A stretch of 64,000 nt of DNA from NCBI GenBank assembly GCA_049304055.1, contig JBAQNT010000007.1, positions 55,370-119,369 on the forward strand, written 5' to 3'. The notes under the pieces were generated by a model. The model worked only from the letters and a program-made list of their open reading frames with translations. It had not been told where the DNA came from and did not search any database. Shown in pieces: positions 35,136-64,000 of this stretch. Both the position numbers and the translations under genes were made by a program. Numbering within the stretch: position 1 is the first letter of the stretch; each line of letters begins with the position of its first letter. Source of the stretch: Microgenomates group bacterium (GTDB lineage: Bacteria > Patescibacteriota > Microgenomatia > UBA1406 > GWC2-37-13).

Positions 35136-35960
35136 ATGCATCGCGGATCCATTCTATCGAAGTTCTCCATAATCTTTGCCCTCGTCTCTCTGTCTGTTTA
35201 TGCAGCTGCACTCGTTTCACCTGTTTTTGCCATCAACATGAATTCGGATGAGTATCGCATCCAGTTTGGCACGGTAAACAGTGGAGGAAAGAAGATGACC
35301 GATTCAAGCTATAAATTAAGCACGTCCGTAGGTCAAGCCGCAGCAAAAGAGTTCCAATCAAACGGATATATCGTCAAGGCGGGGTTTCAATATATCTATT
35401 CCCGAATTCCTTTTACCTTTTCCCTTTCGACTGTCCGGGTCGATTTAGGGACCCTTATCCCGAATACCCCTTCAACTGGTACTGTGGGATTGGAAGTCTC
35501 TTTTGGTGGAGCCGGTCAATATTTGGTAACCGCACGAGCTGATAGTCCCTTATCGACAAACGCGTACACCAGCACCATCCCGTTTACCAGTTGTGATGGA
35601 GGCATTAATACCTGTACCATAACCGTAGCGAAGCCGTGGACAAGCACTTCACTCTACGGGTTTGGATACAATATGACAGGTGAGGATATTCCGACTGATT
35701 TTATTGACGGTACCTATTATCGTCCATTTTCCAATTTAGTGACTCCGGAGACTCCTGCCGTAGTCATGCAGAGCACCAATGTCACAGCAGATATCTCACC
35801 GACTCCCAATCCAGCCTTTACCCCTGCTCCCGTCCTTACCGGAGTCCCACGGGATACTGTCCATCAATCAACAATGACGATGAAGGTCAATATTTCCAGT
35901 ATCCAGCCCGCCGGTACCTATGCAACGATTGTGCGTTTTCTAGCAACACCATCGTTTTAA
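35136..35960 (+). CDS. Secreted beta-rich surface subunit (274 aa), paralogous in its C-terminal domain to the 517-aa protein at 40263
   Basis: Signal peptide ending SPVFA. N-terminal SxxYxL triplet pattern (SDEYRIQFG..SSYKLSTSVGQ..SNGYIVKAGFQYIY). The C-terminus is ISSIQPAGTYATIVRFLATPSF. Confidence 0.7.
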   Translation: MHRGSILSKFSIIFALVSLSVYAAALVSPVFAINMNSDEYRIQFGTVNSGGKKMTDSSYKLSTSVGQAAAKEFQSNGYIVKAGFQYIYSRIPFTFSLSTVRVDLGTLIPNTPSTGTVGLEVSFGGAGQYLVTARADSPLSTNAYTSTIPFTSCDGGINTCTITVAKPWTSTSLYGFGYNMTGEDIPTDFIDGTYYRPFSNLVTPETPAVVMQSTNVTADISPTPNPAFTPAPVLTGVPRDTVHQSTMTMKVNISSIQPAGTYATIVRFLATPSF

Positions 35961-35976
35961 ATAAAAATGTCAAATT

Positions 35977-37002
35977 ATGTTTAATAATCAAATCAAGATG
36001 AATTGTGCATTCAAGATTCCAAATTTGAGACATGTCATTGTATTGGTCTATTTGTTTATTGGTCTATTTGTTTATTCTGGCAGTGTGTTTGCCCAGCAGG
36101 TCACCCTTTCAATTGACCCCCCCATCGTCCAAGCAAAGATAAAACCTGGAAAATCAATATTGGTTGCCTATACCGTTGAAAATAAAGGCGACCCAACCAA
36201 TCTGCAGTTTCTTATTCGCCCCTTTATACCGGTAGGACAAAATGGGTCTCTCACTCTTGTCCCTCAGTTGGAAGGCCCCGTTCAATTCAATTTGGAAAAT
36301 GCCGACGTTATCCTTGAAAAGCCTTTTTTCTTTGCATCAAAAGAAAAAAGACAAGCAGTCGTGCGGATACACATCCCCAAAGGAATCCCTGATGGGGACT
36401 ACTACTACATGATAATCGCCGAAACAGTCCCTGCTTTTTCGCTTGCAGGCCAGTCAACAGGCGTTGCATCTGCATCGTTGGGTGCACCACTTCTCATCTC
36501 CGTGACTGAGTCCGGAATAACAGACATCCAAGCACAAATCGCTGAATTTTCATTCAAACCTAACACCATCGTCTCTCTTGGTAAACGGACGTTTCATATC
36601 GTAGACAGTGCTGACACTGTTACTGTTACTGGATCGGCGCGTAATATGGGTAAACACATGGTCCAACCAAATGGGATTATCACCCATCGATATGGAAGTA
36701 CAAAAAAGAACTATTCGATTGTTCCACAGAATATACTCAGCAATTCTCAACGTCTGCTCAAAGTAGATGGAGAGATCCAGGGGGACAGTACCACTACCGT
36801 ATCACTCCCCCATCTGACAATCGGTAAACATATTGTCACAGCGGCTATTTCATTTAATGACGATTCCTCCGTCCACTACAAAACCATTGAATTTATTGTT
36901 TTACCTATTCGGTTGTTGAAAATAGTGATGGTTTCATTTGGCTTGGTTGCTCTCTATTTTCTCTTGCGTCGTAAGAATAACCGAAATTCCCAAAAAAAAT
37001 AA
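35977..37002 (+). CDS. Secreted Ig-like protein with a C-terminal TM anchor and basic tail (341 aa)
   Basis: Signal peptide ending VFAQQ, then LSIDPPIVQAKIKPGKSILVAYTVENKGD. C-terminal VMVSFGLVALYFLLRRKNNRNSQKK. Confidence 0.7.
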   Translation: MFNNQIKMNCAFKIPNLRHVIVLVYLFIGLFVYSGSVFAQQVTLSIDPPIVQAKIKPGKSILVAYTVENKGDPTNLQFLIRPFIPVGQNGSLTLVPQLEGPVQFNLENADVILEKPFFFASKEKRQAVVRIHIPKGIPDGDYYYMIIAETVPAFSLAGQSTGVASASLGAPLLISVTESGITDIQAQIAEFSFKPNTIVSLGKRTFHIVDSADTVTVTGSARNMGKHMVQPNGIITHRYGSTKKNYSIVPQNILSNSQRLLKVDGEIQGDSTTTVSLPHLTIGKHIVTAAISFNDDSSVHYKTIEFIVLPIRLLKIVMVSFGLVALYFLLRRKNNRNSQKK

Positions 37003-37108
37003 AGAGCGCTAATGACACTATTTAGCCCTTCTGATTGATATATATCACCTCACTTGTTGCTTATAGTCCCTTGTGTCCCCTCTACTCCTTTGATATCTCT
37101 TTATAGAT

Positions 37109-37750
37109 ATGAACGGATTTATTGAATCCTGCAAACCCATCATAAAAAAATATCTATTTGAATGCACACTCCTTCTGGTTGCCTTCTGTATAGGATCCGT
37201 TTCTTTGTTATTGTTTATAAATGATTCGGACGTTGAAGTTTCAACTAAAACCCAAGTGGAAAGTGTGAAACCTGAGCAAAAGAGGGAAATCGTTGTTGAT
37301 GTTTCTGGTGCAGTCCACAAGCCATTCGTTTATACATTCACTCCATCAGCCCGTTTTATCGATGCGATTCAAAAAGCAGGAGGATTGACCGATGAGGCAG
37401 ATAAGGCATTTGTCTCAAGAAATATTAATTATGCACGTATCCTTTCGGACCAGGAAAAAATATATATCCCCACCCTCAGCGATACGACAAACGGGGTGAT
37501 TGGCGAAAATAAACGCATAATCGAATATATCCTACCCAACGCCTTTTCAAGTGTGACAAACGACACAAAGAAGACGAATATCAACACAGCTTCAGCTCTC
37601 CAATTGGATCAACTCCCTGGAGTCGGAAAAGTACAGGCAGAATCTATTATCCAGGGTAAACCTTATTATTCTTTGGAAGATCTGATTGACAAAGAAGTTG
37701 TCTCAAAGTCTACGTATGAAAAAATTAAGGACCTGATTAGTGTGTATTAA
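37109..37750 (+). CDS. comEA: Competence protein ComEA (DNA receptor)
   Basis: N-terminal TM, an SLBB-like region VDVSGAVHKPFVY, and the helix-hairpin-helix NINTASALQLDQLPGVGKVQAESII. Confidence 0.8.
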   Translation: MNGFIESCKPIIKKYLFECTLLLVAFCIGSVSLLLFINDSDVEVSTKTQVESVKPEQKREIVVDVSGAVHKPFVYTFTPSARFIDAIQKAGGLTDEADKAFVSRNINYARILSDQEKIYIPTLSDTTNGVIGENKRIIEYILPNAFSSVTNDTKKTNINTASALQLDQLPGVGKVQAESIIQGKPYYSLEDLIDKEVVSKSTYEKIKDLISVY

Positions 37751-37756
37751 AACAAC

Positions 37757-38554
37757 ATGAATCACCTCCTTGTAAATGCACTGATCGGAATCGATAACAC
37801 GCTCCATGAACCATATGCCTCTCTTTTAAAAGGGCTTGTATATGGCATTCCGATTCAAATAGATCCCCATTTAAAGTCGGCAATCGTTCAAAGCGGGCTT
37901 GCCCATCTGGTCGTTCTCTCGGGTACTAATATAACTCTCCTTGCATCGCTCACTGAGAGGATATTTTTCTTTTTGGGAAGAAAGATGGGAACTATGTTAC
38001 AGTTAGTATTTTTGGGCATGTTTACCGGTATGGTAGGGGCGCAACCACCTTTGATGCGGGCTATATTTATGTTTTTATGCACGACCGTTTGTTATATGAC
38101 TGGACGCCCCTCTTATGCACTCTGGAATTTATTTCTTTCGCTTCTCTGTATAGCTTTCATTTGGCCGCAGTGGCTGGAAACCGTTTCCCTCCATCTTTCC
38201 GTTGCGGCAACTATCGGCATCATCATATCTACACGATTGAAAAATCTCCTACCGATGAAGACACCTATATGGATTGATGTCCTTTTTGAGTCATGGATAG
38301 TATTTATTATTACCACCCCTCTTACTTTCTTTCATTTCAGGACCATCTCTTTGATAAGTCCAGTGAGTACAGCGCTTGCTTCGTGGATCATTGTCCCATT
38401 GATGATTGGAGGATTGTTTATATCTCTTGCATACCGACTTTTGCCCGTTGTCACCATCCCCATTTCAAGCGGTGTGTTCGCTGGATTAAGATATCTTCTC
38501 TGGGTCATAGAGATAACAAGTAGCATCCCTTTTGGGTACTTACAATTCAAATGA
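37757..38554 (+). CDS. comEC: ComEC/Rec2 membrane (competence channel) domain protein
   Basis: LLKGLVYGIPIQIDPHLKSAIVQSGLAHLVVLSGTNITLLA is the signature start of the Competence domain. Several TM segments follow. Confidence 0.75.
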   Translation: MNHLLVNALIGIDNTLHEPYASLLKGLVYGIPIQIDPHLKSAIVQSGLAHLVVLSGTNITLLASLTERIFFFLGRKMGTMLQLVFLGMFTGMVGAQPPLMRAIFMFLCTTVCYMTGRPSYALWNLFLSLLCIAFIWPQWLETVSLHLSVAATIGIIISTRLKNLLPMKTPIWIDVLFESWIVFIITTPLTFFHFRTISLISPVSTALASWIIVPLMIGGLFISLAYRLLPVVTIPISSGVFAGLRYLLWVIEITSSIPFGYLQFK

Positions 38555-38561: not shown

Positions 38562-39302
38562 ATGCTCAGGATAGGAACCAGCATACTTTCTATTATCGTT
38601 TTATTATATTTTCAATCTGCGGTAACTCGTACCTCGCATATCATCTTTTGCGACATCGGACAAGGTTCAGCTACTTTTGTCACAGTCGGAAGCGTACAGA
38701 TACTTATAGATACCGGCCCCAATATGAGGACGCTCGCTTGTATTGGGAAACATATGCCATTCTTCGATCATACTATTGAATTTGTCATCATCTCTCATGA
38801 TCAAAAGGATCATGCGGGAGCACTTCCTGCTCTCCTTAAAAAATATAAGATTGGTCATATCATTGGTCCTCCTGAAATAGCCAAAAGAAACGGAAACATA
38901 CCCTTCACCACAGTGACGAACACCGTCAGATTCACGATTAATTCTCTTCAATTAATCATAATCAGGGCTTCTCAAAGCTCTACTGATTTGAACGAAGCAG
39001 CGAATGTTGTCACCATACGGTCCCCACTCCACGTCATATTCCTCACATCGGACATCAATGGATTTGAATTACAAAGGTTGATACCCACAGATACCACTAT
39101 CCTATCGATTCCCCATCATGGCTCCAAATATGGTCTCTATCCAGATTCACTTGGATTAGCACGTCCCACCCATGCAGTGATAAGTGTCGGAAAAAAGAAC
39201 ACATATGGCCATCCTTCGAAAGAGGTGTTGGATATATTGAAAGCCAAGAAGATACATCTATGGAGAACGGATGTGCAGGGAGAACTGGTGATTGACTTGT
39301 GA
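38562..39302 (+). CDS. ComEC-type metallo-beta-lactamase domain protein (separate ORF)
   Basis: One TM, then IIFCDIGQGSATFV, VIISHDQKDHAGAL and SIPHHGSKYG as found in ComEC C-terminal MBL domains. The track start at 38532 is a TTG that overlaps the previous ORF. Confidence 0.7.
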   Translation: MLRIGTSILSIIVLLYFQSAVTRTSHIIFCDIGQGSATFVTVGSVQILIDTGPNMRTLACIGKHMPFFDHTIEFVIISHDQKDHAGALPALLKKYKIGHIIGPPEIAKRNGNIPFTTVTNTVRFTINSLQLIIIRASQSSTDLNEAANVVTIRSPLHVIFLTSDINGFELQRLIPTDTTILSIPHHGSKYGLYPDSLGLARPTHAVISVGKKNTYGHPSKEVLDILKAKKIHLWRTDVQGELVIDL

Positions 39303-40049
39303 TTATGAAAGCAAGATCCCCTGGATTTCCTTGAATATATTCATTGCCTCAAAACCAATCCAGCTTTCGCCGATAAGTTCCTTGGGAAGTCCTGGGTCTT
39401 CTCTGAGGATTGATACATACTCTTTGAGAACGTTGGTGAATTTCTCCACCTTCTCTCCATCCCCCGATAATATGCTGTGCCATTTTTTGAACAGTTCCCG
39501 ATATTTCTTATCAAGAGAGGACTTGCCCCAAACCTTTTCGATGAGGGTAGCCTTGTCACCAAAAACATGATCTGCTTCAAATGACTGCATATACTGCTCT
39601 TCTTGTTTTCCTGATACGAGTTCACGAAGCGGCTCGATGATTGGGTGTGGAGTTAACCAAAAAGACCTATGCCAAGGCCCTAAACCCCATCCTTGCATCT
39701 CGCGTCTTAATCTGTCTCGCAACTCCCGTTTTGATTCCGGGATTTCATAGGAAATGATTCGAAGTTTTCCGTCCCATTGTTCTTTGAGGAATCGAAATGA
39801 TGGAAATTCGAGACTGAGTGCTCTAAATCCTTTCAGGGTCAATTTATAGGCAGGGACTTCATCCCGACTTGTACCCTTTTCTATCTCACCAACTTTGATG
39901 AGTGAAGAAAGGGTCGATTGTGTTTTTTGATTAAGTGTGAAGTCGAAGAGTTGTTGTGTTTTTTCATCCAACAAGACTTCGCTAAAGTCAACGTTTGATA
40001 AAAGAAAAAGAGCGAGTAATATTTTCGTCCGACGTTCTTTTATTCCCAT
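39303..40049 (-). CDS. PaaX-like transcriptional regulator family protein
   Basis: QWDGKLRIISYEIPESKRELRDRLRREMQGWGLGPWHRSFWLTPHP matches the PaaX C-terminal pattern. The ATG at 40049 was chosen because a near-consensus promoter ends 10 nt upstream of it. Confidence 0.6.
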   Translation of the reverse strand: MGIKERRTKILLALFLLSNVDFSEVLLDEKTQQLFDFTLNQKTQSTLSSLIKVGEIEKGTSRDEVPAYKLTLKGFRALSLEFPSFRFLKEQWDGKLRIISYEIPESKRELRDRLRREMQGWGLGPWHRSFWLTPHPIIEPLRELVSGKQEEQYMQSFEADHVFGDKATLIEKVWGKSSLDKKYRELFKKWHSILSGDGEKVEKFTNVLKEYVSILREDPGLPKELIGESWIGFEAMNIFKEIQGILLS

Positions 40050-40059: not shown

Positions 40060-40088
40060 ACTATAACAGACGGAAAAATACATGTCAA
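40060..40088 (-). promoter_or_regulatory. Sigma70-type promoter TTGACA-17-TATAGT, 10 nt before the ATG at 40049
   Basis: The reverse complement of 40083-40088 is TTGACA and of 40060-40065 is TATAGT. Confidence 0.6.
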
Positions 40089-40262: not shown

Positions 40263-41816
40263 ATGAAACTCATACCAAATATGAACAGAAATACGAAGCG
40301 ATGTTTTTCTTCCGTTGTATTGTTTTTCTTCTTGATTATGCAGGCACTTCCCTTCCTCCCTGCGTCTGTACTAGATATACCATTAATAAAAAAACTAAAT
40401 CAAAACAACCTGTCGTTTTTCCGTCCACATATGCTTGATGCAGCAGGACTTTCCTCAGCATCAGCAACGTTATCCAATCCACGTCTGTCATATCAAGCAG
40501 GTATCAGTACCACGATTGCAGCAGGAAACACAGTCATGACGATTACGGGATCCGGTAATGCAGACAATGATACAAATCACTTGTTCCCAAACGATCCTAT
40601 CGCTGTTGGGACGAATATGGGCATCAAGGTAACTTCGATAGTGGATGCGACGACTTTTACGATTGATACAGGACTTGCCACGGGCGTAACAAACACAAGC
40701 AAGGTCTATGCAACACAGTCAGGAACACTTACTACATCCTTTTATACTGCAAGCGCTATCCCAGTTGGAGGAAGTATCCGCATCGCAGTCCCTGCATCTG
40801 CGGGAAGTGTTTCCGGTAGTCCAAATGATGGTGCTCCAGATACTGCAACCTTAGCAAATAACGGATTTGATTTGAACTTTATCACAGCGAGTGATGTCAC
40901 CTGTCCTGGTGGATTTGCCGCAGGAACTCTTACGGCTGGTACTGGAGGACCTTCAAATCCACATATAATCACCTGTAATTGGTCAAACGGTACATCAGCT
41001 CTTCCTGCTGGAGCGAATCTCTCGGTGACAATCGGAACAGCTTCAAAAGGACTTGTTAACCCAGCACCTGCTGCAAGCCATGTCCAAGGACAAGCGGATT
41101 CCTATACTATTGACATCTCCACGAAAAGCACCGCAAACGGTGGTGGATCAACAATCGAAGATATTGGTACGAAAGTAGCTCCAGTTGAAGGAGTGTTGGT
41201 GTCTGCAACTATTGATGAAACGCTTAATTTTACCGTTGCAGCCGTAACTTCAGCGAACTTACCTACCACATGTGGCTTCACGCCAGCTGGTAACTTGATT
41301 ACCTCAACGGCCACGACAGTGCCTTTTGGAAACAGCATCACGGCAAATACGTTTTATAATGCCGCACAGCAATTGACGGTTTCAACGAATGCTCCTGGAG
41401 GATACAGTGTGAAAGTTGAGGAAAACGATCAAATGGGAAAAGAAGGTAAAGTTTGTACCGGAGCTGCGGCAGGAGAGTCAACAAACTGTATCAAGGATAC
41501 GACATGTGATGGCTCATCGTGTACGGAATCGACATCTGGCGATTGGGCAACAGGTACCAATAACGGTCTTGGTTATTCACTTGCTAATGTTTCAGGAACA
41601 AATGCGAGCTTTCTTTATAATGAATCTGCAAGAACATTCTCTGCAAAGCAATTCTCAGACCAGGAAGTTCCAGAGACAAAGCAGAATATCATGGCCTCGT
41701 CCGGCGTTGTAAGTGGTGATTCTGCCTGCATCATATACAGACTCTCTGTATCGGGTACACAGCCTGCAGGATACTACTACAACAAGGTTAAGTATACAGC
41801 CAGTGCAACATTTTAA
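40263..41816 (+). CDS. Secreted beta-rich surface subunit (517 aa)
   Basis: Signal-like N-terminus and a Thr/Gly/Ala-rich beta composition. The C-terminal domain ...TVSTNAPGGYSVKV...NNGLGYSL...SVSGTQPAGYYYNKVKYTASATF parallels the 274-aa protein. Confidence 0.75.
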   Translation: MKLIPNMNRNTKRCFSSVVLFFFLIMQALPFLPASVLDIPLIKKLNQNNLSFFRPHMLDAAGLSSASATLSNPRLSYQAGISTTIAAGNTVMTITGSGNADNDTNHLFPNDPIAVGTNMGIKVTSIVDATTFTIDTGLATGVTNTSKVYATQSGTLTTSFYTASAIPVGGSIRIAVPASAGSVSGSPNDGAPDTATLANNGFDLNFITASDVTCPGGFAAGTLTAGTGGPSNPHIITCNWSNGTSALPAGANLSVTIGTASKGLVNPAPAASHVQGQADSYTIDISTKSTANGGGSTIEDIGTKVAPVEGVLVSATIDETLNFTVAAVTSANLPTTCGFTPAGNLITSTATTVPFGNSITANTFYNAAQQLTVSTNAPGGYSVKVEENDQMGKEGKVCTGAAAGESTNCIKDTTCDGSSCTESTSGDWATGTNNGLGYSLANVSGTNASFLYNESARTFSAKQFSDQEVPETKQNIMASSGVVSGDSACIIYRLSVSGTQPAGYYYNKVKYTASATF

Positions 41817-41833
41817 TAATTACGCCCTATAAC

Positions 41834-42844
41834 ATGAAAAACACCATGCATACGATCAGAAGAACCTTTTTCGCTCTCTTAATAAGTGTCGTATGCTTTG
41901 CATCATATACCACCTACTCAATGGCTCAATCGGTGCTTCCTTTCACCATAAGTCCCGCACGACAACAGATCACCATCAATCCTGGAGAAGAAGCGCAGAT
42001 ATCAGTTAAATTTTATAATCAAAGCGATATTCCCGTAGCGGGAGTGGTAAAAGTAGCTGACTTTATCGTTGATGACGATAAGGGTACCCCACGTATCGTT
42101 GAAGATGTAACTCAAGCGTCCCCAAAATACTCCGCATCAGAATGGGTTACATTGCCATTTGATCGGATGGGTATCGCTGCAAACGATAAGACAGTCGTAC
42201 AAGCAACACTCAAAGTCCCCCAAGATGCACGACCGGGTGGAAGATATGCAGCTATTTATTTTGAACCCACCACAGCCGTTGCACAACCTGTTGGAGAAGC
42301 GGGCGCAAGTATCACCCCTCGTATAGCATCCCTCCTCTATATCCGTGTACAAGGACCTATGACTGAGTATGCTTTTATTTCAAATATGTTCGCACGTTCG
42401 TTTTATGAATATGGACCTATTGAAGTGACCGCACAAATCACCAATAAGGGAGATTATCATGTTCGCCCTCGTGGCACATTCACCCTGAGTAATACGTTTG
42501 GTGGAATGATAGAACAGACGAGCGTCAAGGAAGCAAATATCTTTCCAGATGCACTGCGCACATTTACGGCAACAGTGGGAACAAAATGGATGGCTGGCAG
42601 ATATAAGATAAGTCTTAATACATTGTATGGTGAACAGATGAAAGCAGCGGATAGATCCGTTTACGTCTGGGTATTTCCATGGAGAGCGGCAATAGTCGTA
42701 GCGCTCAGCCTGCTTATTCTTTGGATCATAGGGAGATCAATCTATAAGAATATCGTCATGAAGGAAGTAACACTCGAACAAGAGCTGTCCCATGACCGAG
42801 AAGAAATAGAAAAACTAAAGAAGCAACTGAACAAACGTGAATAA
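41834..42844 (+). CDS. Secreted Ig-like protein with a C-terminal TM anchor (336 aa), paralogue of 35977..37002
   Basis: Signal peptide, then FTISPARQQITINPGEEAQISVKFYNQSD. C-terminal TM AAIVVALSLLILWIIG plus a charged coiled tail. Confidence 0.75.
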   Translation: MKNTMHTIRRTFFALLISVVCFASYTTYSMAQSVLPFTISPARQQITINPGEEAQISVKFYNQSDIPVAGVVKVADFIVDDDKGTPRIVEDVTQASPKYSASEWVTLPFDRMGIAANDKTVVQATLKVPQDARPGGRYAAIYFEPTTAVAQPVGEAGASITPRIASLLYIRVQGPMTEYAFISNMFARSFYEYGPIEVTAQITNKGDYHVRPRGTFTLSNTFGGMIEQTSVKEANIFPDALRTFTATVGTKWMAGRYKISLNTLYGEQMKAADRSVYVWVFPWRAAIVVALSLLILWIIGRSIYKNIVMKEVTLEQELSHDREEIEKLKKQLNKRE

Positions 42845-42860
42845 CAGTCTGTCTAGTCAT

Positions 42861-43841
42861 ATGAGGACTATTCTATCCCTCACTATATTCTTCCTCATGT
42901 CGTCTATCCCAAGAGCTGTTTCTGCAGCTGTTATCAATCCAGTGGATAAGGAAGTAACCGTATCGGTGACCATCAGCAACAGTGTTGATGTGACCCCTAC
43001 CCCACCACCAAACGATAATCGTCGGTTTAGTATTTTTGGCAACACATCACCGAATGCAAAAGTGGTCATCCAGAATCCAGGGATACATAGTGAGACATAT
43101 GCCAATGCAGAAGGAGTTTTTAATTTTGAATATCTCTTCCTCGCACTCTTCCGTGAAGATATCTGTATCATTGCTCATGATACTGAGAACAGGAGCACCC
43201 CACCTCTGTGTATTCCACCCCCCCTCGATCAAGAAAACAAGAAAATTGGTCCTATACTATTACCTCCTTCAACCTCAATAAGCAGTGGAAACGCATATAT
43301 CGGAGATACTGTTACATTGACTGGTCAAACAATACCTAATGCAGACGTGAAGCTTTCAATGTTCACGGATGAATTGAAACAAAACAAAAAGCTGTCCCTT
43401 ATTCCATCTGCTTATGCTTATACCTTACCTCAGTTTGCCCTCAATTCAAACAAAAAAGGTGAATATTCCCTTACGCTGCCCACTGCTAGCTCGCAATTCT
43501 TAAGGATGTTCACACGGGCGATTTATGAAGGAAATTCAACACCTAAAGGTCTTACTCTCATCCTGGACATCTTCCCGCTCTGGATGATTCTTTTCAAATT
43601 TTTTTCGACCTATCTGACACTTCTTAAGAATCATCTTGTCGAGCTCATTATCCTTCTCCAGCTTTACTTCCTTCTCATGTACTTCCTCAAACATTATTTC
43701 CATCCACACACCATCAGTAATCATAGGAAAAACTGGCTTGCGCTGCGTCAGACGACACTCATGAGTATGCCACACGAGCTTGCGATGAAGGAACATCGCG
43801 AGTTGGTTATCCGCTCGGTCGCTCTCGCTCTGTCTTATTGA
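42861..43841 (+). CDS. Secreted protein with two Ig-like segments and a hydrophobic C-terminal region
   Basis: Signal peptide MRTILSLTIFFLMSSIPRAVSAA. FGNTSPNAKVVIQNPG.. and GDTVTLTGQTIPNADVKL are beta-sandwich-like. TM-like LILDIFPLWMILF... The track start at 42837 is a GTG. Confidence 0.6.
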   Translation: MRTILSLTIFFLMSSIPRAVSAAVINPVDKEVTVSVTISNSVDVTPTPPPNDNRRFSIFGNTSPNAKVVIQNPGIHSETYANAEGVFNFEYLFLALFREDICIIAHDTENRSTPPLCIPPPLDQENKKIGPILLPPSTSISSGNAYIGDTVTLTGQTIPNADVKLSMFTDELKQNKKLSLIPSAYAYTLPQFALNSNKKGEYSLTLPTASSQFLRMFTRAIYEGNSTPKGLTLILDIFPLWMILFKFFSTYLTLLKNHLVELIILLQLYFLLMYFLKHYFHPHTISNHRKNWLALRQTTLMSMPHELAMKEHRELVIRSVALALSY

Positions 43842-44251
43842 TAGAAAGATAATCTCGCCTTTTGAGGTAGTTTAAGTTCGTCTATGCTGATTTCTAGGTA
43901 ATATTCTCCAGGTGTGGTCGAAGAGAGATCGAACTGAGCCTTACCCGTAGCATCTGTTGCCTCTTGTACCGCAGTAAGCACCAATCGTGGATCCTGACTG
44001 AGTAGGACTTTCTTTCCGAAAACTCCAAGTCCCTGACTGTTCAACACGAAGACGGTAACTCGTATTTTTTCTTTTCCGTCAGATTGGGCCTTCAATGGAT
44101 TGGTGAACACATAGGAATTGTCAACGGAGATGTCCACCTTTACACTACTTGCCCTACTTCCAAAGAACTGTGTCTCATAAAAAAAGAAGAAGAGAGAGAA
44201 CGAAATAAGGACAAGGAAAAATAAAATGGCTGATAACAAGAACTTCTGCAT
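43835..44251 (-). CDS. Membrane-anchored Ig-like (Big-type) domain protein (138 aa)
   Basis: N-terminal TM LLSAILFFLVLISFSLFFFF, then KIRVTVFVLNSQGLGVFGKKVLL...TDATGKAQFDLSSTTPGEYYL. TGcTATACT extended -10 lies 6 nt before the ATG. Confidence 0.6.
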   Translation of the reverse strand: MQKFLLSAILFFLVLISFSLFFFFYETQFFGSRASSVKVDISVDNSYVFTNPLKAQSDGKEKIRVTVFVLNSQGLGVFGKKVLLSQDPRLVLTAVQEATDATGKAQFDLSSTTPGEYYLEISIDELKLPQKARLSFYQ

Positions 44252-44616: not shown

Positions 44617-44644
44617 TTGACACTATTATTATTATTGTTATATG
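44617..44644 (+). promoter_or_regulatory. Sigma70-type promoter TTGACA-16-TATATG (TG-extended), 9 nt before the ATG at 44654
   Basis: TTGACA at 44617-44622 and TGtTATATG at 44636-44644. The track start ATG at 44642 lies inside the -10 element. Confidence 0.5.
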
Positions 44645-44653
44645 CTGAGATAT

Positions 44654-45115
44654 ATGTCGAATAGGTATAATTTTTTTTATTTCGAGGCTACATTTAAAAA
44701 ATACCTTCATGCGGGAAACGCAGGAGCCGCCACTATCAAGAGCTATCTCTCAGATCTCCATTTTTTCTTTACGTGGATGCAAAATGAAAAGGAAATTAGT
44801 GAATTAGACCTATATGACGCTCCAAACATATTTACTCACTCATTGGTTCACGAATATCATTCATTCCTTCTAGCCTCGAAAACCCCCTCCTCTACGTATG
44901 ATAGGCGCCTCTCAAGCCTCAGACAGTTCTTTGCCTTCTGCGTGGCCCAGGCGTGGCTAAAATCCAACCCTGCACATGAGTTTGATAGATACACCAAGAC
45001 AGACCAACTGAACGACATTATTACTAGATTCAAAGATCACTTGAAGACCAAAAAGGTCAGTGATGACGTATTAGCGCGTCACATCAATACGATTAGAAAC
45101 CTTATTATCAATTAA
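44654..45115 (+). CDS. Stand-alone phage-integrase N-terminal SAM-like (core-binding) domain protein, with no catalytic domain
   Basis: TIKSYLSDLHFFFTWM and YDRRLSSLRQFFAFCVAQAWLKSNPA fit the tyrosine-recombinase core-binding domain. The ORF stops after about 153 aa without an R..HxxR..Y catalytic domain. Confidence 0.6.
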   Translation: MSNRYNFFYFEATFKKYLHAGNAGAATIKSYLSDLHFFFTWMQNEKEISELDLYDAPNIFTHSLVHEYHSFLLASKTPSSTYDRRLSSLRQFFAFCVAQAWLKSNPAHEFDRYTKTDQLNDIITRFKDHLKTKKVSDDVLARHINTIRNLIIN

Positions 45116-54008: not shown

Positions 54009-54017
54009 GAATTGTAT

Positions 54018-54641
54018 ATGAGCGACGAAATGAAGGAAGAAACCAACACAAAAAATGCCAAACATACTAGTGTTGACGCGATAATCCTCGTTGCGTTGGT
54101 TGTCGTATTGGGTGCTCTCGGCGGATATTATTTGATGAATCGCTCACCAAAACAAACTAATGTCCCGACATCCGTATCCCCTTCTCCTGTAGTGACACAA
54201 GAACAAAGTGTTCCTACAACAATCAAGGAGCCAGCATCCACAACCACAACTGTAACCACAAAACCTGTCAATTCACCTACCCCATCCCCAAAACCGATTC
54301 CTCATGGATCCAAGAATTTTTATGTTTCAATCGGTAGTGAAGTCAAAGGTCCTCGAATGGGGAAAGGAACGATTGACCCATATGATCCAGTCGTTGGTGG
54401 GAAACAAAGACTTACCATTGAAGTCAATGATACTGTCCCTGTCCAGAAAGTCGTGGCGATAATCAAAACCGATAAAAAAACCTCTGAACCTCATATGTTG
54501 ACGGCAGGTGCAGGAGTCACCAACAAGGGCAACTGGTCTGGAGAATGGACGATGGATGATTCATATCTATACACATATATATTATCCATTCAAGCAACAA
54601 GCGCTAGCGGAACATCGAGTGTTGACATTACACTCAGATAA
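54018..54641 (+). CDS. Membrane-anchored protein with a PT-rich linker and a small C-terminal beta domain
   Basis: TM AIILVALVVVLGALGGYYL, linker SPSPVVTQEQSVPTT..SPTPSPKP, then a ~110-aa domain. Confidence 0.6.
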   Translation: MSDEMKEETNTKNAKHTSVDAIILVALVVVLGALGGYYLMNRSPKQTNVPTSVSPSPVVTQEQSVPTTIKEPASTTTTVTTKPVNSPTPSPKPIPHGSKNFYVSIGSEVKGPRMGKGTIDPYDPVVGGKQRLTIEVNDTVPVQKVVAIIKTDKKTSEPHMLTAGAGVTNKGNWSGEWTMDDSYLYTYILSIQATSASGTSSVDITLR

Positions 54642-54643: not shown

Positions 54644-55645
54644 ATGAATATACTATTTAACTTTGTTCTTGCAACACTTCTTTTGTTTGTTCCTTCTTTG
54701 GCATTCGCAGGATGTACATACAACACGGTCGGCACAACAAGCACCATAACCTCTTCATGTTCATTTGATAACACCGTTGATGGATTTGATACCGGAACAG
54801 GGCTTGAAAATACAAGTGAACTTCGTATTTCAGGCGGAACATTGACGATTGGAGGGAATCAGGCTATTGCACTTGGAAAATTGACTCTTACCGGAGGGGC
54901 TCTTGCCATCATCGATGGTGGAAAACTCCTCCTGAATCGAGTCTTATGGTACACGGACGCAGATAATGATGGATATGCGACAACCGCACTCCCGAAGTCA
55001 GACCCATTACCAGGACCACTCACTCCGACCCCAACTGGATTCAAGAGAAGAGTTGCATTTACTCCGACAGGAGTTGACTGTAATGATTTGGCTAGCGAGG
55101 TGAAGATTTCACATACACAATGCTATGCAGATGCTGATGCCGATACATATACGAATGGTTTAGCGCCAAATTCCACTTGTTTGAGTCACGCTACATGCCC
55201 ACTTTCGACTAGCACAAGTGCATCAACACACGGTGCGTCAGTCGTTAGCCATACCTCACCCAATGAGTTAAGGGACGCGGCAACCACTAATGACTGTGGT
55301 GATACAGTGGCAAATGCAAAACCAGGGCAAACAGCTTACTTCTCTACGCCATTCTTGAATAATTCTGGAGTCTCACAATATGACTATGACTGTTCCGGAA
55401 ATGGTACAGCTGCGGGCGAAACAAAAGATCCATCCCAACCACTCTATGTATGTAATGTTACTGGCTGTGCATCCCATTATTTCACGATAAGCGCAGGATT
55501 TACAACGGCTACAGCTTGTGGAGCGACCGGTACATGGAAAACATATGCAGGTGCAGGAGGCGCCGCTTGTACAATCAATATCGCAGGGGCTGGTGTCACC
55601 TGTCCTGCTGGAACAACATCCTCAGTTGTTCAGAAATGTAAGTAA
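54644..55645 (+). CDS. Secreted Cys-rich protein with DADxDGY-type motifs
   Basis: Signal peptide ending LAFAGC, WYTDADNDGYATT and CYADADADTYTNG motifs, and many Cys residues in the C-terminal half. Confidence 0.6.
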   Translation: MNILFNFVLATLLLFVPSLAFAGCTYNTVGTTSTITSSCSFDNTVDGFDTGTGLENTSELRISGGTLTIGGNQAIALGKLTLTGGALAIIDGGKLLLNRVLWYTDADNDGYATTALPKSDPLPGPLTPTPTGFKRRVAFTPTGVDCNDLASEVKISHTQCYADADADTYTNGLAPNSTCLSHATCPLSTSTSASTHGASVVSHTSPNELRDAATTNDCGDTVANAKPGQTAYFSTPFLNNSGVSQYDYDCSGNGTAAGETKDPSQPLYVCNVTGCASHYFTISAGFTTATACGATGTWKTYAGAGGAACTINIAGAGVTCPAGTTSSVVQKCK

Positions 55646-55647: not shown

Positions 55648-57381
55648 TCATTCTTGGGATTGTTCTTGAAGTGACTTAATCTTCTTTTGAACGGCATTAT
55701 ACGTGTCCTGTTGTATCTTTTTTGGGTCTTTCAAAAGGATTCTTTCATAGTTTTCTAAGTATGCAGTAGCATATCTATCAGCTGCCTTTTGGCCCTCAAG
55801 GTCTCTTTTTAGGGTATATAGCTTCTCCATACGGTCAACCAAGCTATCACCATAGATATACCCGCCCCACAGGAAGCTTTCTTCATATGCCTGAAGCGCC
55901 TTCTTGTCGTAGTATCGGCTCCCGAACTCCGTATATTTATCTCCTACATATTCCAACCGGAAGGCATCGATGCTGAAGGCGTTTTGATACTGATTAATGT
56001 ATGATGCAATCGTAAAGCGGCTTTCATATTTATGACTTTTTTCAATGAGTGTCTCCATATTCTCACGATCAAACGGATAAATTGCTTGAGCTATTTTATA
56101 CTGACCACTTTTTATGAGAAATGAATGCGTAAAAAGGAGTTGGATATACACAACTCCTATGCTTGTGACTATCAAAAGCGCCTTTTTGGGCATTGAGAAT
56201 ACCCGCACTTTATCGTTTGATGCAAGCGCCAGACCTCCGAGTATAAAAAATAACATCCATAACTGTGTATATGTATACGTGGAAAACCCCAGGAAACTGA
56301 TACATAATGAACTGAAAAGCAGAAAGGATAGGCTTTTTTTATCGGCGGCGACAATGATATAGCACACCAACAGAACAAGACCCGCGGCAGCAAAAATTCC
56401 CTGCTCAGCAAGCATGTCGATTATCAGATTGAAGCTCGTTATGGTTGAAACAAAAAGTTCGTCCGTAAATCTATAAGATAAATAGGGAAAATTACCCTGA
56501 CCAATCCCTACAAATGGCTCCAGAAGGAACCCTTTTATTCCCATAATCCAATATGGCGAACGTGAAAATATAAGTGGACGAGCGTGCAACATCCCCTGTA
56601 TCGAACTGTTATTTTGCAGGAGTGTAAGCGTTTCGTTATTGACCCTTGTGACAAAAAGCATACATGCTCCCAATATGAAAAGCCCATTCACTCCAAGAGA
56701 AATTACCAATGATAAGGATTCCTTCTTGATAAGGGCGCGATGCGAGTAGAAAAGAATAAGAAGACTTACTGCAAGTGTGATGTATGCTGTTCTGGAAAAA
56801 GAAAGGAGAAATATAGGGAGCAATAATATGAATGGAACAAGCCATATTTTCTTTCTTTTGACAAAAAAAGTGTAGATAGAAATCAGTAAGGGAAACACTA
56901 AATAGTCGCCGATTGTCTTATGGAGATATGCGGGATTGAAGAGGAGATTGAGCCTGACACCCTTTATAAATTCACGTCCGTATGGGGTGTATAGACAGAA
57001 TAACGAGACCGCAACAAACACCACCGCCAATGCCACAATCAATCTTGGCAATTGTTTTTTTATGAGCTTTGCATGTTGAAAAACATACAAAAACAAAAGC
57101 ACCAAACTCAAGTCTCTCAGGAATAATTCTATAGATACTCCTATCTGTTTTGAATTGATGAGGGAAATAAATGAACTCCCCATATAGACGATGGATAACC
57201 CTAAAAACACCTTCGGGATCGAATAGTGTTTTTTGGGATCAAACAAAAAAAGAAAAAGCGGAAGGGCGAAAATGAAAAAATACAGAAACCGCAAATCCAG
57301 TATGAAATGGATACCTTCAACGAGTGAAATTGCCAAAAAAGTAACGTAAAAAACACCAAGATGTAGTTTGTGCCGAACCAT
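55648..57381 (-). CDS. O-antigen ligase/polymerase-like (Wzy_C-type) polytopic membrane protein with a C-terminal soluble helical domain
   Basis: About 12 TM segments. LLSFSRTAYITLAVSLLIL, a large loop and VGIGQGNFPYL fit the O-antigen ligase family pattern. The ATG at 57381 is supported by TGtCATAAT 6 nt upstream. The track start at 57561 overlaps the pilin gene. Confidence 0.55.
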   Translation of the reverse strand: MVRHKLHLGVFYVTFLAISLVEGIHFILDLRFLYFFIFALPLFLFLFDPKKHYSIPKVFLGLSIVYMGSSFISLINSKQIGVSIELFLRDLSLVLLFLYVFQHAKLIKKQLPRLIVALAVVFVAVSLFCLYTPYGREFIKGVRLNLLFNPAYLHKTIGDYLVFPLLISIYTFFVKRKKIWLVPFILLLPIFLLSFSRTAYITLAVSLLILFYSHRALIKKESLSLVISLGVNGLFILGACMLFVTRVNNETLTLLQNNSSIQGMLHARPLIFSRSPYWIMGIKGFLLEPFVGIGQGNFPYLSYRFTDELFVSTITSFNLIIDMLAEQGIFAAAGLVLLVCYIIVAADKKSLSFLLFSSLCISFLGFSTYTYTQLWMLFFILGGLALASNDKVRVFSMPKKALLIVTSIGVVYIQLLFTHSFLIKSGQYKIAQAIYPFDRENMETLIEKSHKYESRFTIASYINQYQNAFSIDAFRLEYVGDKYTEFGSRYYDKKALQAYEESFLWGGYIYGDSLVDRMEKLYTLKRDLEGQKAADRYATAYLENYERILLKDPKKIQQDTYNAVQKKIKSLQEQSQE

Positions 57382-57403
57382 GTTATCATTATGACATATA
57401 TCC

Positions 57404-58108
57404 ATGAAAAAGAATAGAATAGCCATGACTCTTCTTGAAATACTTATCGTGATCACTGTATTTGCCGTATTGGCGGTCAGCGTTATCATTCTTATGGATC
57501 CGGCAAAAATGTATGGGCGGGCGCTTGATACCACAAAAAAAACCGATTTGGCAAAATTCAAGAAAGCAATGGAGGAATATTTTAATGATAAGGGATGTTA
57601 CCCGTCCCCCAATATGGTGTGCTATACGGGAGGAGATAACGCGACCCCTGCCGGAAACCCCTGCTATATCTGTGGAGACGAAGCCACATCCCCTCAATTA
57701 AAGCCATATCTTGAAACTCTTCCCTGCGATCCAAGCCACCCCAAGCAAAAATTTTATTATTCAGTCGACACATATGCGTGTCCCAAAATGTATCGTATCT
57801 ATGCAAAATTCAATATCCAGAATGATGAATCAAGTTTGGATGTCGGATGTGCACAGTCTGGATGCGGTCCTTCCCTTCCGTGGGGATACGACTATGGTGA
57901 ATCAAGCCCCAATATCTGGCTGAATAGATCCGGAGTCTACAACTGTTATACCCGAGACGCAAAATGCAATAATTGTGGAGGTCCTGGAAACTTAGGAACC
58001 GATGCATATACCAACTGCCTCAAGAGCGTGGAAACAGGTGCCTGTATCACTATCTATAGCTCTCATGAGGCATGTTGTACTGATAACCCCAATGTTGGAT
58101 GTACCTGA
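57404..58108 (+). CDS. Type IV pilin/pseudopilin-like protein with an N-terminal prepilin cleavage/methylation motif and a Cys-rich globular domain
   Basis: MKKNRIA/MTLLEILIVITVFAVLAV has a basic leader, Glu at +5 and a hydrophobic helix. The C-terminal domain has about 16 Cys. Confidence 0.7.
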   Translation: MKKNRIAMTLLEILIVITVFAVLAVSVIILMDPAKMYGRALDTTKKTDLAKFKKAMEEYFNDKGCYPSPNMVCYTGGDNATPAGNPCYICGDEATSPQLKPYLETLPCDPSHPKQKFYYSVDTYACPKMYRIYAKFNIQNDESSLDVGCAQSGCGPSLPWGYDYGESSPNIWLNRSGVYNCYTRDAKCNNCGGPGNLGTDAYTNCLKSVETGACITIYSSHEACCTDNPNVGCT

Positions 58109-58126: not shown

Positions 58127-58156
58127 TTGACACCTCATTTTTGTTACACTGAATAT
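58127..58156 (+). promoter_or_regulatory. Candidate promoter TTGACA-18-GAATAT, 12 nt before the ATG at 58169
   Basis: TTGACA at 58127-58132 and GAATAT at 58151-58156. Confidence 0.4.
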
Positions 58157-58168
58157 ATCTCATTTTAT

Positions 58169-61100
58169 ATGGTAAAAAAGACTCATTCATTACTCCAAAA
58201 GTGGTACATTGCCGGTATTGCCGTTTTACTTGTTGTGACAGCCTTTTTTATTGTTTCTCGTATCCCAAAAAAGCCGGAGCTCGGATTCAGTCGGCAACTC
58301 TTTAATCCAGGTGAATTTCACGGGACAATTCCGAATGTTTTGGATACGACGATTTCTCGCTCAGAACAGCAGGTTGAAGTCGTCGTGAAACGCGAGAATG
58401 TCTCACTCTCTTTTCAGCTGCCGATTGAGGGAACCAAAATCAAAGAAAGCGAGAATCTCCTTGCCTTTTCCTCCCCCAATGGAGAAATTACGACAGAGTA
58501 TAGTATGCGTCGGGATGGACTCAAAGAAAACATCATCCTGAATAAGGTCCCGAAAGAAAATATCTTCCCCAGCACCCTCAAGACTGAAGGGCTTATCACC
58601 AAAATATCCGCAGAAGGTATTCCTGTCTTTTTTGATAAAAATAATACCTATCAATTCCATTTTGAACGTCCGTATGTGAAGGATGCTGCCGGTGCTGTGA
58701 GCTATGCCGTGAGTTATCGGGTTGTCGGACAGGAAGAAGAGAATGTCAAGAAAACTCAGGAGCAATTTGCGACAGAACTTCTTTCTCGTTTAAAGACAAT
58801 AAAGCAAATAGGTCAGTCATACGTTTTGCAAGTCGTCGTTGACCCTACTTGGCTTCACGACCCAAAACGTGTCCTCCCAATAACTATAGATCCGACGGTC
58901 GTCCACAATACATCAAGCACTTTTGCGACGGGGACACTGGATAATTCGTATGATTCAGGCTCCGGTGCATCCCCTATTCTTGGGAGTGGTTATCAGGAAC
59001 TTGCAGCAGACGCCAACACAGTTGGTTTGTGGCATATGAATGAGGCGAGTGGGAATGTGTTGGACTCATCTGGTAATGGAATAACAGGAACTCCAACTGG
59101 TACGACGGTTGTTGCTGGAAAAATGGGAAATGGAAGGAGTTTTAACGGAACAACCAACTATATTGAGTTTGGAGATGTGACTATATTGGATCAAGCACTC
59201 CAGGGAACTATATCTGTTTGGATAAAACCAAATTCATTACCAACCGCATCGGATTATAACAGTATTATTGCGAAAGCAGATTTCGCAGCTGCGGGGAATG
59301 CATTCTTTATTAGATTAGGTGGTGCAGAAGGCATTCGTTTCGCGGTCAGAGATGCGGCAAGTAACCAGATAAATTGTGATACTATCACATTTCCTCCTGT
59401 TGGAGAATGGACTCTTGTTACTGGAGTATTTACAAACAATCAGTGTCATGTCTATTTCAATGACGATTTAAAAGTAAGTAGTAGTGTAACTAGTTTCACT
59501 GGCATACAGAATACCACTACAACACTAAGAATTGGATCGAGTAATTATGCTTCCGAGTTATTTTTTGATGGATTAATTGACGAGGTTCGAATCAGTAATA
59601 TTGCCCGATCATTAGAAGATATAAAAGCCTCTGCATCCCGCCGCCCTAATGCTACCTATACCTCCCCCGTCATTGACCTGGGCACAAAGGCAACTGCGTG
59701 GAGCGGTCTTTCATGGGTTGAAACTGGAGTTGCAACTGGTTTTGGAGAAACTCCTTATAGTTCAACTGGCTTGATTGCTCAATGGAACCTGAACGAACGT
59801 GGAACTGCTATTGCAGCAAATTATGCTGGAACATGTGGGACATCGTGTAATGCGACTCTTACTGGATTTAGTAATACAAATGGACCAGATTTAGTTCTTG
59901 GTTCTGGGTGGACTGCCCAAAATCAACGATGGGGAGCAGGCGCTATTATGTTCAATGGAACAAGCGATTACTTAAGTGTTCCAAACCATTCATCTCTAAA
60001 TGTTACAGGTGGCCCGTTCACTATTGAAAGCTGGGTCAAACCAAGGAATCTCACTGCAAGATATACTGTGTTCAGTACAAGGACGACTAATGCCGCCGGA
60101 GGTTGGCAACTGGAAGTTGGAACGGGAAATGGTGGGACCGGAAGAGTGTCTGTTACTGGCCTTAATACCTGGATTTTTGATTCAGTTGATAAAGTTATAG
60201 AGGCAGAACAATGGAGTCATATCGTCTACACTCGAGCCTCAAATAGCGATACAGGAAAGGTGTATGTAAATGGGAAAGAAGTGCGGTCTATTACAACAGC
60301 TGCCTATACAATAGCTAATAATACTGATGTTAAATTAATTGGAGCGGGCACCTTAATAACATCGTTTTTTCCAGGGGTTATAGATTCTACAAGGTTTTAT
60401 GGAAGAGTGCTGGATGCCAATGAAATTCTATCCAACTATAATGCAACGAATGTTGAATTTCAAACGCGCGTAGGAAATACGGCAGATCCCACAGACGGCA
60501 CTTGGGAAGCATGGAAACCTATCACAAATGAAGCAACAGTCGATTCATTTGATTCCTCTCCTCTTCCTAGTTGTACCGCAAATGGCGGAGTGACGACTGA
60601 TGGAGGTAAGACATATATGTTCACCACAGGCGATCGCGCTGTGTATTTAGGTACTGAAGTAGATCAAAAGTATACTGTGCCTGAAGGCGTTACTTCAGTT
60701 ACCGTAAAAATGTGGGGTGGTGGAGGTGGAGGTGGAGCGGTAGGTGGATGGACCTATGGATATGCAGGAGGAGGTGGTGGATACACAACAGGAACAATCG
60801 CAGTTACTCCTGGCCAAGTGCTTGATGTGATGGTTGGAGCGGGAGGAGCTCCTGGGTATCTAAATTATGAAAGCTCAACAAACTCATATGGAGGTGGAGG
60901 GCGGAACTGTAATTCAGACTGCCGTTATTCAGGCCAAGGTGGAGGACGATCAGCTATTAGGTATGGAGGGGTTGATTTGTTAACTGCGGGTGGTGGAGGC
61001 GGTGGTGGCTCTACATTAACAACATCAAGTAGCTCAGCTGGAGGCGCTGGAGGAGGGACATCTGGTGCTGCTGGTTCTGCCGCTGCAAGTCCAGCTGCTG

Positions 61101-64000: not shown

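Follow-up and report, generated by a model that had tools for sequence, protein, structure and literature searches.

What holds a long run of surface genes together in a small bacterial genome: a shared function, a common origin or mere proximity? This question is raised by a 64,000-nt stretch of DNA from a Microgenomates group bacterium (hereafter the window; positions 55370–119369 of contig C7, in a genome of 1.13 Mb with 10 contigs and a G+C (GC) content of 43%), in which a first-pass annotation had proposed, from 35.1 kb to the window end, an integrated island for cell-surface attachment and DNA uptake. The block is likely a vertically inherited neighborhood of cell-envelope genes in a Roizmanbacteria-like (Microgenomatia) bacterium of the Candidate Phyla Radiation (CPR), composed of separable modules and constituting neither one machine nor a mobile island. 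The first of these would be a pilus module comprising a four-transmembrane protein (TM219), a PamT-like pilin with its chaperone (pilin A and chaperone A, cassette A), a PamA-like pilin with its chaperone (pilin B and chaperone B, cassette B), the B3 protein and a small Big_1 protein. The others are a comEA–comEC (comE) operon accompanied by a PaaX-like gene, a SAM-like protein with a giant fiber, and an accessory segment at 54–66 kb. Gene identities were obtained from the listing of open reading frames (ORFs) and from Pfam, NCBIfam, TIGRFAM-type (TIGR), PHROG and PDB searches, and AlphaFold2 (AF2) models of pilin B and chaperone B were compared with known structures by Foldseek. The close homologues of the window proteins bear the names Ca. 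Roizmanbacteria, Microgenomates or Patescibacteria. Coordinates are window positions, and genes lie on the forward strand unless marked (−).

The block, which extends from 35.1 kb to the end of the window, contains 17 genes, fewer than the approximately 20 counted at first pass, and 15 of them carry a hydrophobic leader or a transmembrane (TM) segment, as judged for all genes by a Kyte-Doolittle scan and by reading the N-termini by eye. The two exceptions are those originally named, the PaaX-like and the SAM-like proteins. In the raw scan every gene in the block except the SAM-like one was flagged, and the flag on the PaaX-like ORF is an artefact because it results from an over-long TTG start; the real start of this gene is at 40046, behind a conserved promoter. 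Across the whole genome, 43% of ORFs carry a leader or TM segment. The block is the best run of the genome (18 of 20 genes; gene permutation p ∼0.007 for the genome-wide maximum), and in the best 30-kb window by bases such genes account for 97.6% of coding bases, compared with a mean of 50.5% (standard deviation 15.4) and 87% in the next-best window. The permutation of single genes overstates the significance, since operons cluster like genes, and a comparable TM-rich cluster (16 of 18 genes) is located at 303–321 kb of contig C1. Counted by genes or by bases, surface genes reach their highest concentration in this region of the genome, in agreement with the initial impression of an unusual density.

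The composition of the block is native. Its GC content is 0.430 (the genome value is 0.431), the GC content at third codon positions (GC3) of 0.398 equals that of the 1–34 kb half of the window, and its codon-usage distance is ordinary. Gene order within the order and genus was compared in 30 relatives that were anchored on ComEC and for which the flanks were fetched (G-numbers denote the genomes of relatives, L-numbers fetched loci). Three genomes of the same genus (G002, G004, and G008) are fully collinear with the window, and three others (G001, G005, and G006) are collinear up to their contig ends. The collinear series runs through secE-nusG-rplKA, TM219, both cassettes, comE, PaaX, Big_1, SAM, the fiber, the accessory genes, LysM-M23, a 10-TM/TPR gene, GDH, TrxR, and Rho. 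Other genera and families of this order retain the core, in which whole units have been inverted, for example TM219-pilin A-chaperone A, and cassette B has been lost in four genomes (G017, G019, G039, and G119). Within the genus, collinearity includes the left half of the window; in G020, a genome of another family, that half is not collinear and the block persists. These comparisons of composition and synteny, both of which had been suggested at first pass, indicate that the region is part of the core genome and not an acquired or strain-specific island: the same gene order is kept within the genus, the core recurs throughout the class, no catalytic integrase is encoded and inheritance is vertical.

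The linkage extends far beyond the genus. In a survey of 201 sampled Microgenomatia genomes, the profile of chaperone B found matches in 81 and ComEC was found in 176. Both genes are on one contig in 36 genomes, and in 35 of these they are less than 20 kb apart (median 8.6 kb), with a random expectation of ∼4% for two genes to fall within 20 kb in a 1-Mb genome. Even in the single exception (G069), TM219 and a chaperone-A-type gene still lie beside leuS-comEA-comEC. Among 15 fetched loci from eleven families, the order that recurs in at least nine families consists of a leftward arm of (leuS), comEA, comEC, and comEC-MBL (metallo-beta-lactamase) and, divergent from it, a rightward arm of TM219, small pilin, chaperone, large pilin, chaperone, B3, Big_1, SAM-like gene, and fiber. 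In most Microgenomatia the comE operon is thus divergent and adjacent to one contiguous pam operon. This recurrent order indicates that the pam genes ancestrally formed one operon, and that the arrangement in this order, in which two cassettes flank comE and the PaaX-like gene, is derived. In many families (L050, L054–L060, L062–L064, and L066) leuS, the gene of LeuRS, separates comEA from the pam operon, and in this genome it is 30 kb away (1179–4283).

The identity of the two cassettes was approached through the Pam pilus. In filaments of Ca. Mycosynbacter amalyticus, cryo-EM revealed PamA and PamB, two-domain pilins linked by donor-strand exchange. Their genes are accompanied by those of PapD/FimC-like chaperones with a C-terminal TM helix (PamC and PamD), of PamT, a pilin of the tip, and of PamR, an anchored terminator similar to RbmA (Troman et al. 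2026 preprint, PMC13278184). The same study reported homologues in Saccharimonadia and Microgenomatia, including a Roizmanbacteria example, and a 'tail fiber-like protein' consistently near the pam operon, and it mentions neither competence genes nor PaaX (PMC13278184). The candidate unit begins with TM219 (34439–35098), which lies just before the start of the block as initially delimited yet belongs to the pam unit. In the Kyte-Doolittle scan it is a membrane protein of four TM segments, with a helical tail at the C-terminus on the cytoplasmic side; it has no Pfam or NCBIfam match. Across the class, TM219 is always directly upstream of the PamT-like pilin and is inverted along with it. This small pilin (35136–35960) is a secreted, β-rich protein with a signal peptide that ends in ...SPVFA. 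It matches the hidden Markov models (HMMs) NF058579 CPR_pilus_PamT (E 1.2e-10; 41 bits, with a cut-off of 240) and NF058581 CPR_Pam_pilin_C (E 1.7e-4; 21.7 bits, with a cut-off of 55). Pilin B (40263–41816), the candidate PamA-like major pilin, has itself no NF058581 match, which is found in 16 of 36 close family members (best E 9.8e-6), and the C-terminal domains of the two pilins are homologous. In the AF2 model of pilin B (mean predicted local distance difference test, pLDDT, 84.8), an N-terminal β-sandwich (residues 66–305) is followed by a low-confidence linker (residues 311–318) and a C-terminal domain (residues 321–517), so the two-domain pilin architecture of a β-sandwich, a linker, and a second domain of Ig-like type is present in the model. 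Foldseek matched it to the chaperone-usher subunits CfaB, CfaE, CupB6, PapG, and SafD and also to MSCRAMMs and Ig-like adhesins.

Chaperones A (35977–37002) and B (41834–42844) are full-length paralogues, and chaperone A is matched by the A2 profile with an E-value of 3.9e-7. Chaperone A has a signal peptide and a C-terminal TM segment (residues 306–324). For chaperone B the AF2 model (pLDDT 83.5) contains two β-sandwich domains and a C-terminal helix (residues 283–335), within which the Kyte-Doolittle scan places a TM segment (residues 285–303); model, Foldseek matches, and hydrophobicity agree on a PapD/FimC-like chaperone that retains a C-terminal TM helix. Its best Foldseek match is WxLIP of Enterococcus faecium (9i1y/9i25, E 4e-14, TM-score 0.50–0.55), further matches are RbmA and the chaperones CfaA, CsuC, YadV, and CupB2 (E ∼1e-9, TM-score ∼0.5), and in Pfam it matches WxLIP_PGBD (E 2e-4). 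The two pilin/chaperone pairs are distant paralogues of each other and, in a profile search, the only pam-like pairs of the genome. B3 (42837–43841), which follows chaperone B across the class, is secreted and Ig-like, with a signal peptide and C-terminal TM segments (residues 238–280). Its profile matches the Bap Ig-like domain 7dm0 (E 3.9e-4), and it occupies the position at which PamR would be found; it is a candidate (PamR-like) pilus base or anchor. That B3 is a third chaperone was considered and rejected, as it shows no relation to the chaperone profile. Conserved beside B3 across the class is a small, N-terminally anchored protein with a Big_1 (Ig-like) domain (43835–44251, −; PF02369, E 4.7e-12).

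Family matches, predicted folds, and the Pam and Elr/WxL preprints therefore point to the cassettes as pilin and chaperone pairs of a single-membrane donor-strand-exchange pilus that is closest to Pam and has a chaperone fold in common with WxLIP. By analogy with the Pam pilus of M. amalyticus and the enterococcal Elr/WxL system, the pilins would be exported by Sec, held by the membrane-anchored PapD/WxLIP-like chaperone through donor-strand complementation, and polymerized by donor-strand exchange without an usher. As in Pam, both PapD-like chaperones carry a TM helix at the C-terminus, an Ig-like protein with a C-terminal anchor occupies the place of PamR, a tail-fiber-like gene is adjacent and there is no usher, and the host belongs to Microgenomatia, a lineage listed as Pam-positive (PMC13278184). 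The differences are that the sequence scores stay under the curated cut-offs, only two pilin genes and no clear PamB or PamE are present, a 4-TM protein heads the operon, and comEA-comEC and the PaaX-like gene split this operon in the order to which the genome belongs. The neighborhood is also different, with secE-nusG/leuS/comE in place of the ATP synthase/CorB/MFS genes of Pam. As for the second relative, the WxLIP-type (DUF916/DUF3324) protein ElrE was described as the membrane-anchored donor-strand chaperone of a Gram-positive pilus, in an Elr/WxL system that was reported as confined to Bacillota (October 2026 preprint, bioRxiv 10.64898/2026.10.17.759780). The locus resembles this system in the best structural match of chaperone B, in the membrane-anchored chaperone of a single-membrane cell, and in a pilin that adjoins its chaperone in the operon. 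Only the chaperone fold is common to both, however: neither pilin has a Pfam match at E ≤ 0.01 and so no WxL domain was detected, and no LPxTG-like motif was found near any C-terminus in the block. As a set, the components had at first been regarded as not being a described system; the cassettes probably correspond to Pam-type pilus genes (NF058579/NF058581), for which the tail-fiber-like neighbor has already been reported (PMC13278184).

Within this conserved setting, one part of the pilus module has a history of its own. In trees of comEA+comEC+PaaX+NusG and of cassette A, this genome groups with G001 and G006. In the tree of pilin B + chaperone B it groups with G004 and G008, and the pair of G001 groups with G020, a genome of a different family, with a support of 1.0. 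The identities agree with the conflict between the trees: pilin B is 30–32% identical to its counterparts in G001 and G006 and 68–74% identical to those in G008 and G004, and the whole pilin-B/chaperone-B pair (40263–42844) of the closest relatives, G001 and G006, is 30–38% identical to that of this genome. Thus, the major pilin and its chaperone have been swapped together between lineages, in a locus that is otherwise inherited vertically. Together with the internal repeats of the fiber, this allele replacement bears out the signs of recombination noted at first pass.

The three genes between the cassettes would serve DNA import. ComEA (37109–37750) has an N-terminal TM anchor, an SLBB domain (E 6.4e-10), and a helix-hairpin-helix DNA-binding domain (HHH_3, E 7.7e-11), and it matches TIGR01259 (E 4.9e-15); it thus combines the membrane anchor and the DNA-binding domain expected of this protein. 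ComEC is not encoded as one polypeptide, its Competence and MBL domains being located in two adjacent genes. The channel (Competence) domain is encoded at 37757–38554 (PF03772, E 2.7e-30), and the MBL part, a Lactamase_B family protein with its own N-terminal TM segment, at 38562–39302 (TIGR00361 positions 423–663, E 1.5e-30); no DUF4131/OB domain was detected in the split ComEC. The split is kept in all 30 relatives with a match, in which the channel orthologues are open frames of ∼260–310 aa, and the MBL gene always follows the channel gene. Class-wide, almost all ComEC frames among those listed are shorter than 520 aa, and only three reach ∼615–635 aa. Because the frames are intact across relatives, the split is a conserved architecture of the lineage and not decay, and a pseudogenized ComEC was rejected. 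The split protein probably works like ComEC, its architecture being a lineage variant. In comparison with ComEA and ComEC of transformable bacteria, the SLBB and HHH domains and the canonical order of Competence and MBL are common features, whereas the split of ComEC into two genes (in the order and in most of the class) and the separation of the operon from the type IV pilus (T4P) genes are differences.

Downstream of comEC, on the opposite strand, lies the PaaX-like transcription-factor candidate (39303–40046, −; PaaX_M E 1e-17, PaaX_C E 2e-7), a single-copy gene of this genome. It is the best conserved gene of the block, with 74–89% identity in the genus compared with 30–80% for its neighbors, and its promoter-like site (40060–40088, −; TTGACA-17-TATAGT with TG) is shared by 10 genomes, with ACAGACG invariant in its spacer. 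In the intergenic alignment between the PaaX-like gene and pilin B, this PaaX-side promoter alone is conserved, and it was the sole exception in a scan for consensus promoters and terminators, the counts of which were otherwise at the shuffle expectation. PaaX-like genes are also located in the cluster of unrelated families (G168 and G215); outside the order these proteins are multi-copy and paralogous, and they are useless as a class-level synteny anchor. Of the two local regulators proposed at first pass, only the PaaX-like gene is a credible candidate.

The other proposed regulator, the SAM-like protein (44642–45115; 157 aa; PF02899, E 3e-9), belongs to the fiber. It contains only the N-terminal core-binding domain of tyrosine recombinases and lacks their catalytic domain (R-K-H-R-H/W-Y). 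In five genomes, G099 and G138 (family f43), G215 (f30), and G017 and G039 (the family of the window), the SAM-like sequence is in one open frame with the fiber. A Pfam scan of the G099, G138, and G215 fusions found two PF02899 domains in each (E 1e-12 to 1e-16), and in G138 and G215 a TM helix was detected before the conserved fiber start (..SFQGR..). An exhaustive search with the 157-aa protein returned 896 relatives, the best 150 representatives of which are 115 small stand-alone proteins, 16 tandem proteins, and 19 long proteins (515–2079 aa). All 19 long representatives have the SAM-like domain(s) first, then one TM helix and a long region, in most cases with fiber motifs, and none of these 19 looks like a recombinase. 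The family is basic, with a median isoelectric point of 9.1. In view of the in-frame fusions in other genomes, 44642–45115 is therefore a split-off cytoplasmic module of the fiber and not an independent local regulator.

The fiber itself (45396–53957; 2853 aa) is a tail-fiber-like adhesin candidate that would be anchored by one N-terminal TM helix (residues 80–98), with the SAM-like module encoded separately upstream in this genome and fused in other lineages. It matches phrog_9942, a tail fiber (E 3e-12), and PDB 8ond, Bd2133 of Bdellovibrio (E 3.4e-4), and contains 13 GNVGIGT-type motifs and internal repeats that are 74–82% identical. Conservation between species is confined to the ends, the shaft being variable, and in G039 the whole fiber has only ∼800 aa. 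The Bdellovibrio mosaic fiber (Bd2133) and phage tail fibers are similar in the sequence of shaft modules, in the repetitive modular shaft, and in the presumed role of binding another cell. In contrast to them, the fiber described here is TM-anchored at its N-terminus, is paired or fused with a cytoplasmic SAM-like domain, and is 2853 aa long, with sizes from ∼800 aa upward among relatives. By analogy with one-component regulators of the ToxR/CadC type, the fiber and its SAM-like module might be a membrane-tethered DNA-binding adhesin, in which a basic, recombinase-type cytoplasmic domain would be joined, or in this genome non-covalently associated, through one TM helix to a giant receptor binder of tail-fiber type outside the cell. 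Host contact would then be signaled directly to DNA, for example to the neighboring pam and comE genes, and the class-wide comE-pam-SAM-fiber linkage would be the genomic footprint of a program of attachment and DNA import that is triggered by contact in Microgenomatia. We regard this idea as speculative and improbable.

How far the modules form a functional whole has to be weighed against several observations that count against the modular reading and its Pam component. Both Pam HMM scores of the small pilin are below the curated cut-offs and at the level of remote homology, the TM-scores of pilin B are low (0.1–0.25) with a match that is domain-wise, and a sequence search of both pilins against PDB gave no useful match, the structures compared including no solved Pam. 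The Pam assignment is accordingly one based on sub-threshold HMM scores and predicted folds, and the signal peptides were called by a hydrophobicity heuristic alone. The intergenic regions of the block share only trivial 9-mers and no recognizable operator. Finally, with a housekeeping gene, leuS, inside the neighborhood, the conserved order may in part reflect low rearrangement and not function. Taken to its limit, this last point would make the block a neutral juxtaposition, in which unrelated surface operons are adjacent only through the slow rearrangement of small CPR genomes. The flanks (secE-nusG-rplKA; GDH, TrxR, and Rho) are indeed equally collinear in genus and family, leuS intervenes between the comE and pam operons of many families, and the TM-rich cluster on C1 is of similar density. 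At the class level, however, the flanks change and comE, pam, and the SAM-fiber genes stay together through inversions of whole units, 35 of 36 genomes show the linkage against a random expectation of ∼4%, and the SAM-fiber fusion proves a functional linkage of at least that pair. A neutral origin of the entire arrangement is for these reasons rather unlikely.

The view taken at first pass is the reverse, that of a single, co-regulated apparatus for attachment and uptake, controlled by the PaaX-like (and SAM-like) proteins and amounting to one new system. It would account for the strong class-wide comE-pam-fiber linkage, for the recurrence of PaaX-like genes in the cluster of unrelated families, and for the outstanding conservation of the PaaX-like gene and its promoter. 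Yet the block holds at least seven transcription units on both strands, separated by strand changes and by gaps of 216, 390, and 280 nt, and no shared operator was found among them. The T4P motor ATPases and eight pilins are encoded on another contig, one third of the block (54–66 kb) is genus-specific, cassette B is missing in the four genomes named above, leuS lies within the neighborhood elsewhere, and one of the two supposed regulators is a fiber domain. We consider such an integrated apparatus unlikely. A horizontally acquired island or prophage remnant was rejected on composition and synteny. PHROG matches of the fiber and of the LamG giant to tail-fiber and virion proteins, the integrase-type N-terminal domain of the SAM-like protein, and the replacement of the pilin-B/chaperone-B allele across lineages could be cited for it, but GC, GC3, and codon usage are native, a catalytic recombinase domain is absent, and capsid, terminase, and portal genes are missing. 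There are also no direct repeats and no flanking tRNA (the Rfam scan found nothing but one tRNA, at 1137–1210), and the block is at the same site across the whole class with only 54–66 kb being lineage-specific, all of which makes this explanation extremely improbable. Within the vertically inherited, modular neighborhood that we prefer, we lean toward a functional coupling of the pam and fiber modules, and a coupling of pam and comE is possible but doubtful. We infer that the genes together serve host contact and DNA scavenging, and a host-interaction toolkit is a reasonable reading of the locus.

The central component of this neighborhood, the Pam-type pilus with its fiber neighbor, has already been described; Pam pili were identified only in 2026, in one cultured species of Saccharimonadia (PMC13278184). 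The locus would show the Pam system as it looks in Microgenomatia. New with respect to the literature searched are the class-wide linkage of the pam operon to split comEA/comEC genes, the tail-fiber-like adhesin whose gene is fused, in several lineages, to that of a cytoplasmic SAM-like domain of recombinase type, and the replacement of a major pilin and its chaperone as a unit between lineages, as expected of a determinant of host specificity. To our knowledge, Microgenomatia have no cultured members, and the genes provide specific candidates, open to experiment, for the means by which ultrasmall episymbionts locate their hosts and acquire nucleotides.

The remaining genes of the block, at 54–66 kb, form a genus-specific segment. 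It begins with p209 (54012–54641), an anchored Pro/Thr-rich protein with a TM segment at residues 24–42, and a Cys-rich secreted protein with 14 Cys (54644–55645), for which no family match was obtained and which is a possible lipoprotein (..LAFA|GC); both were found in the genus only. They are followed by a polytopic Wzy_C protein of the O-antigen ligase/O-oligosaccharyltransferase-like type (55648–57384, −; 12 TM segments; PF04932, E 2.1e-8, 34.5 bits with a cut-off of 31.7), the gene of which is present in G004 and G008 and absent in G002. The divergent gene 19 nt away (57404–58108) encodes an orphan type IV pilin-like protein with 16 Cys (N_methyl, E 5e-4, 19.9–22.2 bits, around the cut-off of 21.2). 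A search of the genome found no other pilin outside the T4P cluster, which is located on contig C8 and contains PilB/PilT-type ATPases and the eight other pilins. The pilin O-oligosaccharyltransferases TfpO/PilO and PglL adjoin pilin genes in Pseudomonas and Neisseria. The same combination of a polytopic Wzy_C protein and an adjacent type IV pilin gene is found here, and because the orphan pilin is paired with such an enzyme, the two genes probably serve pilin O-glycosylation, which is a prediction. Unlike the TfpO/PilO/PglL genes, this pair is divergent, distant from the T4P machinery, genus-specific, and missing in G002.

The last gene (58127–64000 and beyond) encodes a LamG/Gly-rich giant of 2574 aa at full length, which ends 1851 nt past the window (window-equivalent 65851). 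It has a TM segment at residues 28–46 and matches Laminin_G_3 in four stretches (E 8e-81) and Gly_rich_2 (E 1.9e-15), and it is both genus-specific and variable. The five longest genes of the genome (1558, 2387, 1979, 2853, and 2574 aa) all lie within ∼95 kb, at 28–121 kb of contig C7. After the block, at window-equivalent 65989–69075 (L026:7959–11045, −), come a LysM-M23 peptidase and a 10-TM protein whose TPR tail resembles PilW/Tgl; the similarity of the Wzy_C protein to the latter is only marginal (E 0.024). In G195 and G039 the accessory segment is absent, and the fiber is followed by the TPR membrane protein and the LysM-M23 peptidase. These two genes, which come directly after the fiber in other genera, may belong to the conserved core.

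Some minor features were observed in the left half of the window. A 1979-aa ORF without TM segments or Pfam matches and an 832-aa ORF (14592–23145, −) fill an 8.5-kb slot between a transketolase-like gene and a P-type ATPase gene. The slot is empty in G002 and contains unrelated sequence in G004 and G008, and it therefore marks a site of variation between genomes that are collinear elsewhere. A 181-aa protein with weak HEPN/RNase LS-like matches (25781–26326, −) is kept beside the P-type ATPase in the genus and in G195. Between a TrmB-like gene and rplA there are five genes (27366–32306; a DMT-type transporter, a HAD-APH kinase fusion, an aldo-keto reductase-like protein, a HAD protein, and a 233-aa protein) that are missing in G002 and G005, in which TrmB is ∼2.2 kb from rplA. 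Lastly, reading of the sequence upstream of nusG revealed a putative short secE-like ORF (34196–34435, −; MAKPVLKTQF...VTWPTREQ...). If this ORF is secE, the block would begin right after the secE-nusG-rplK-rplA operon.

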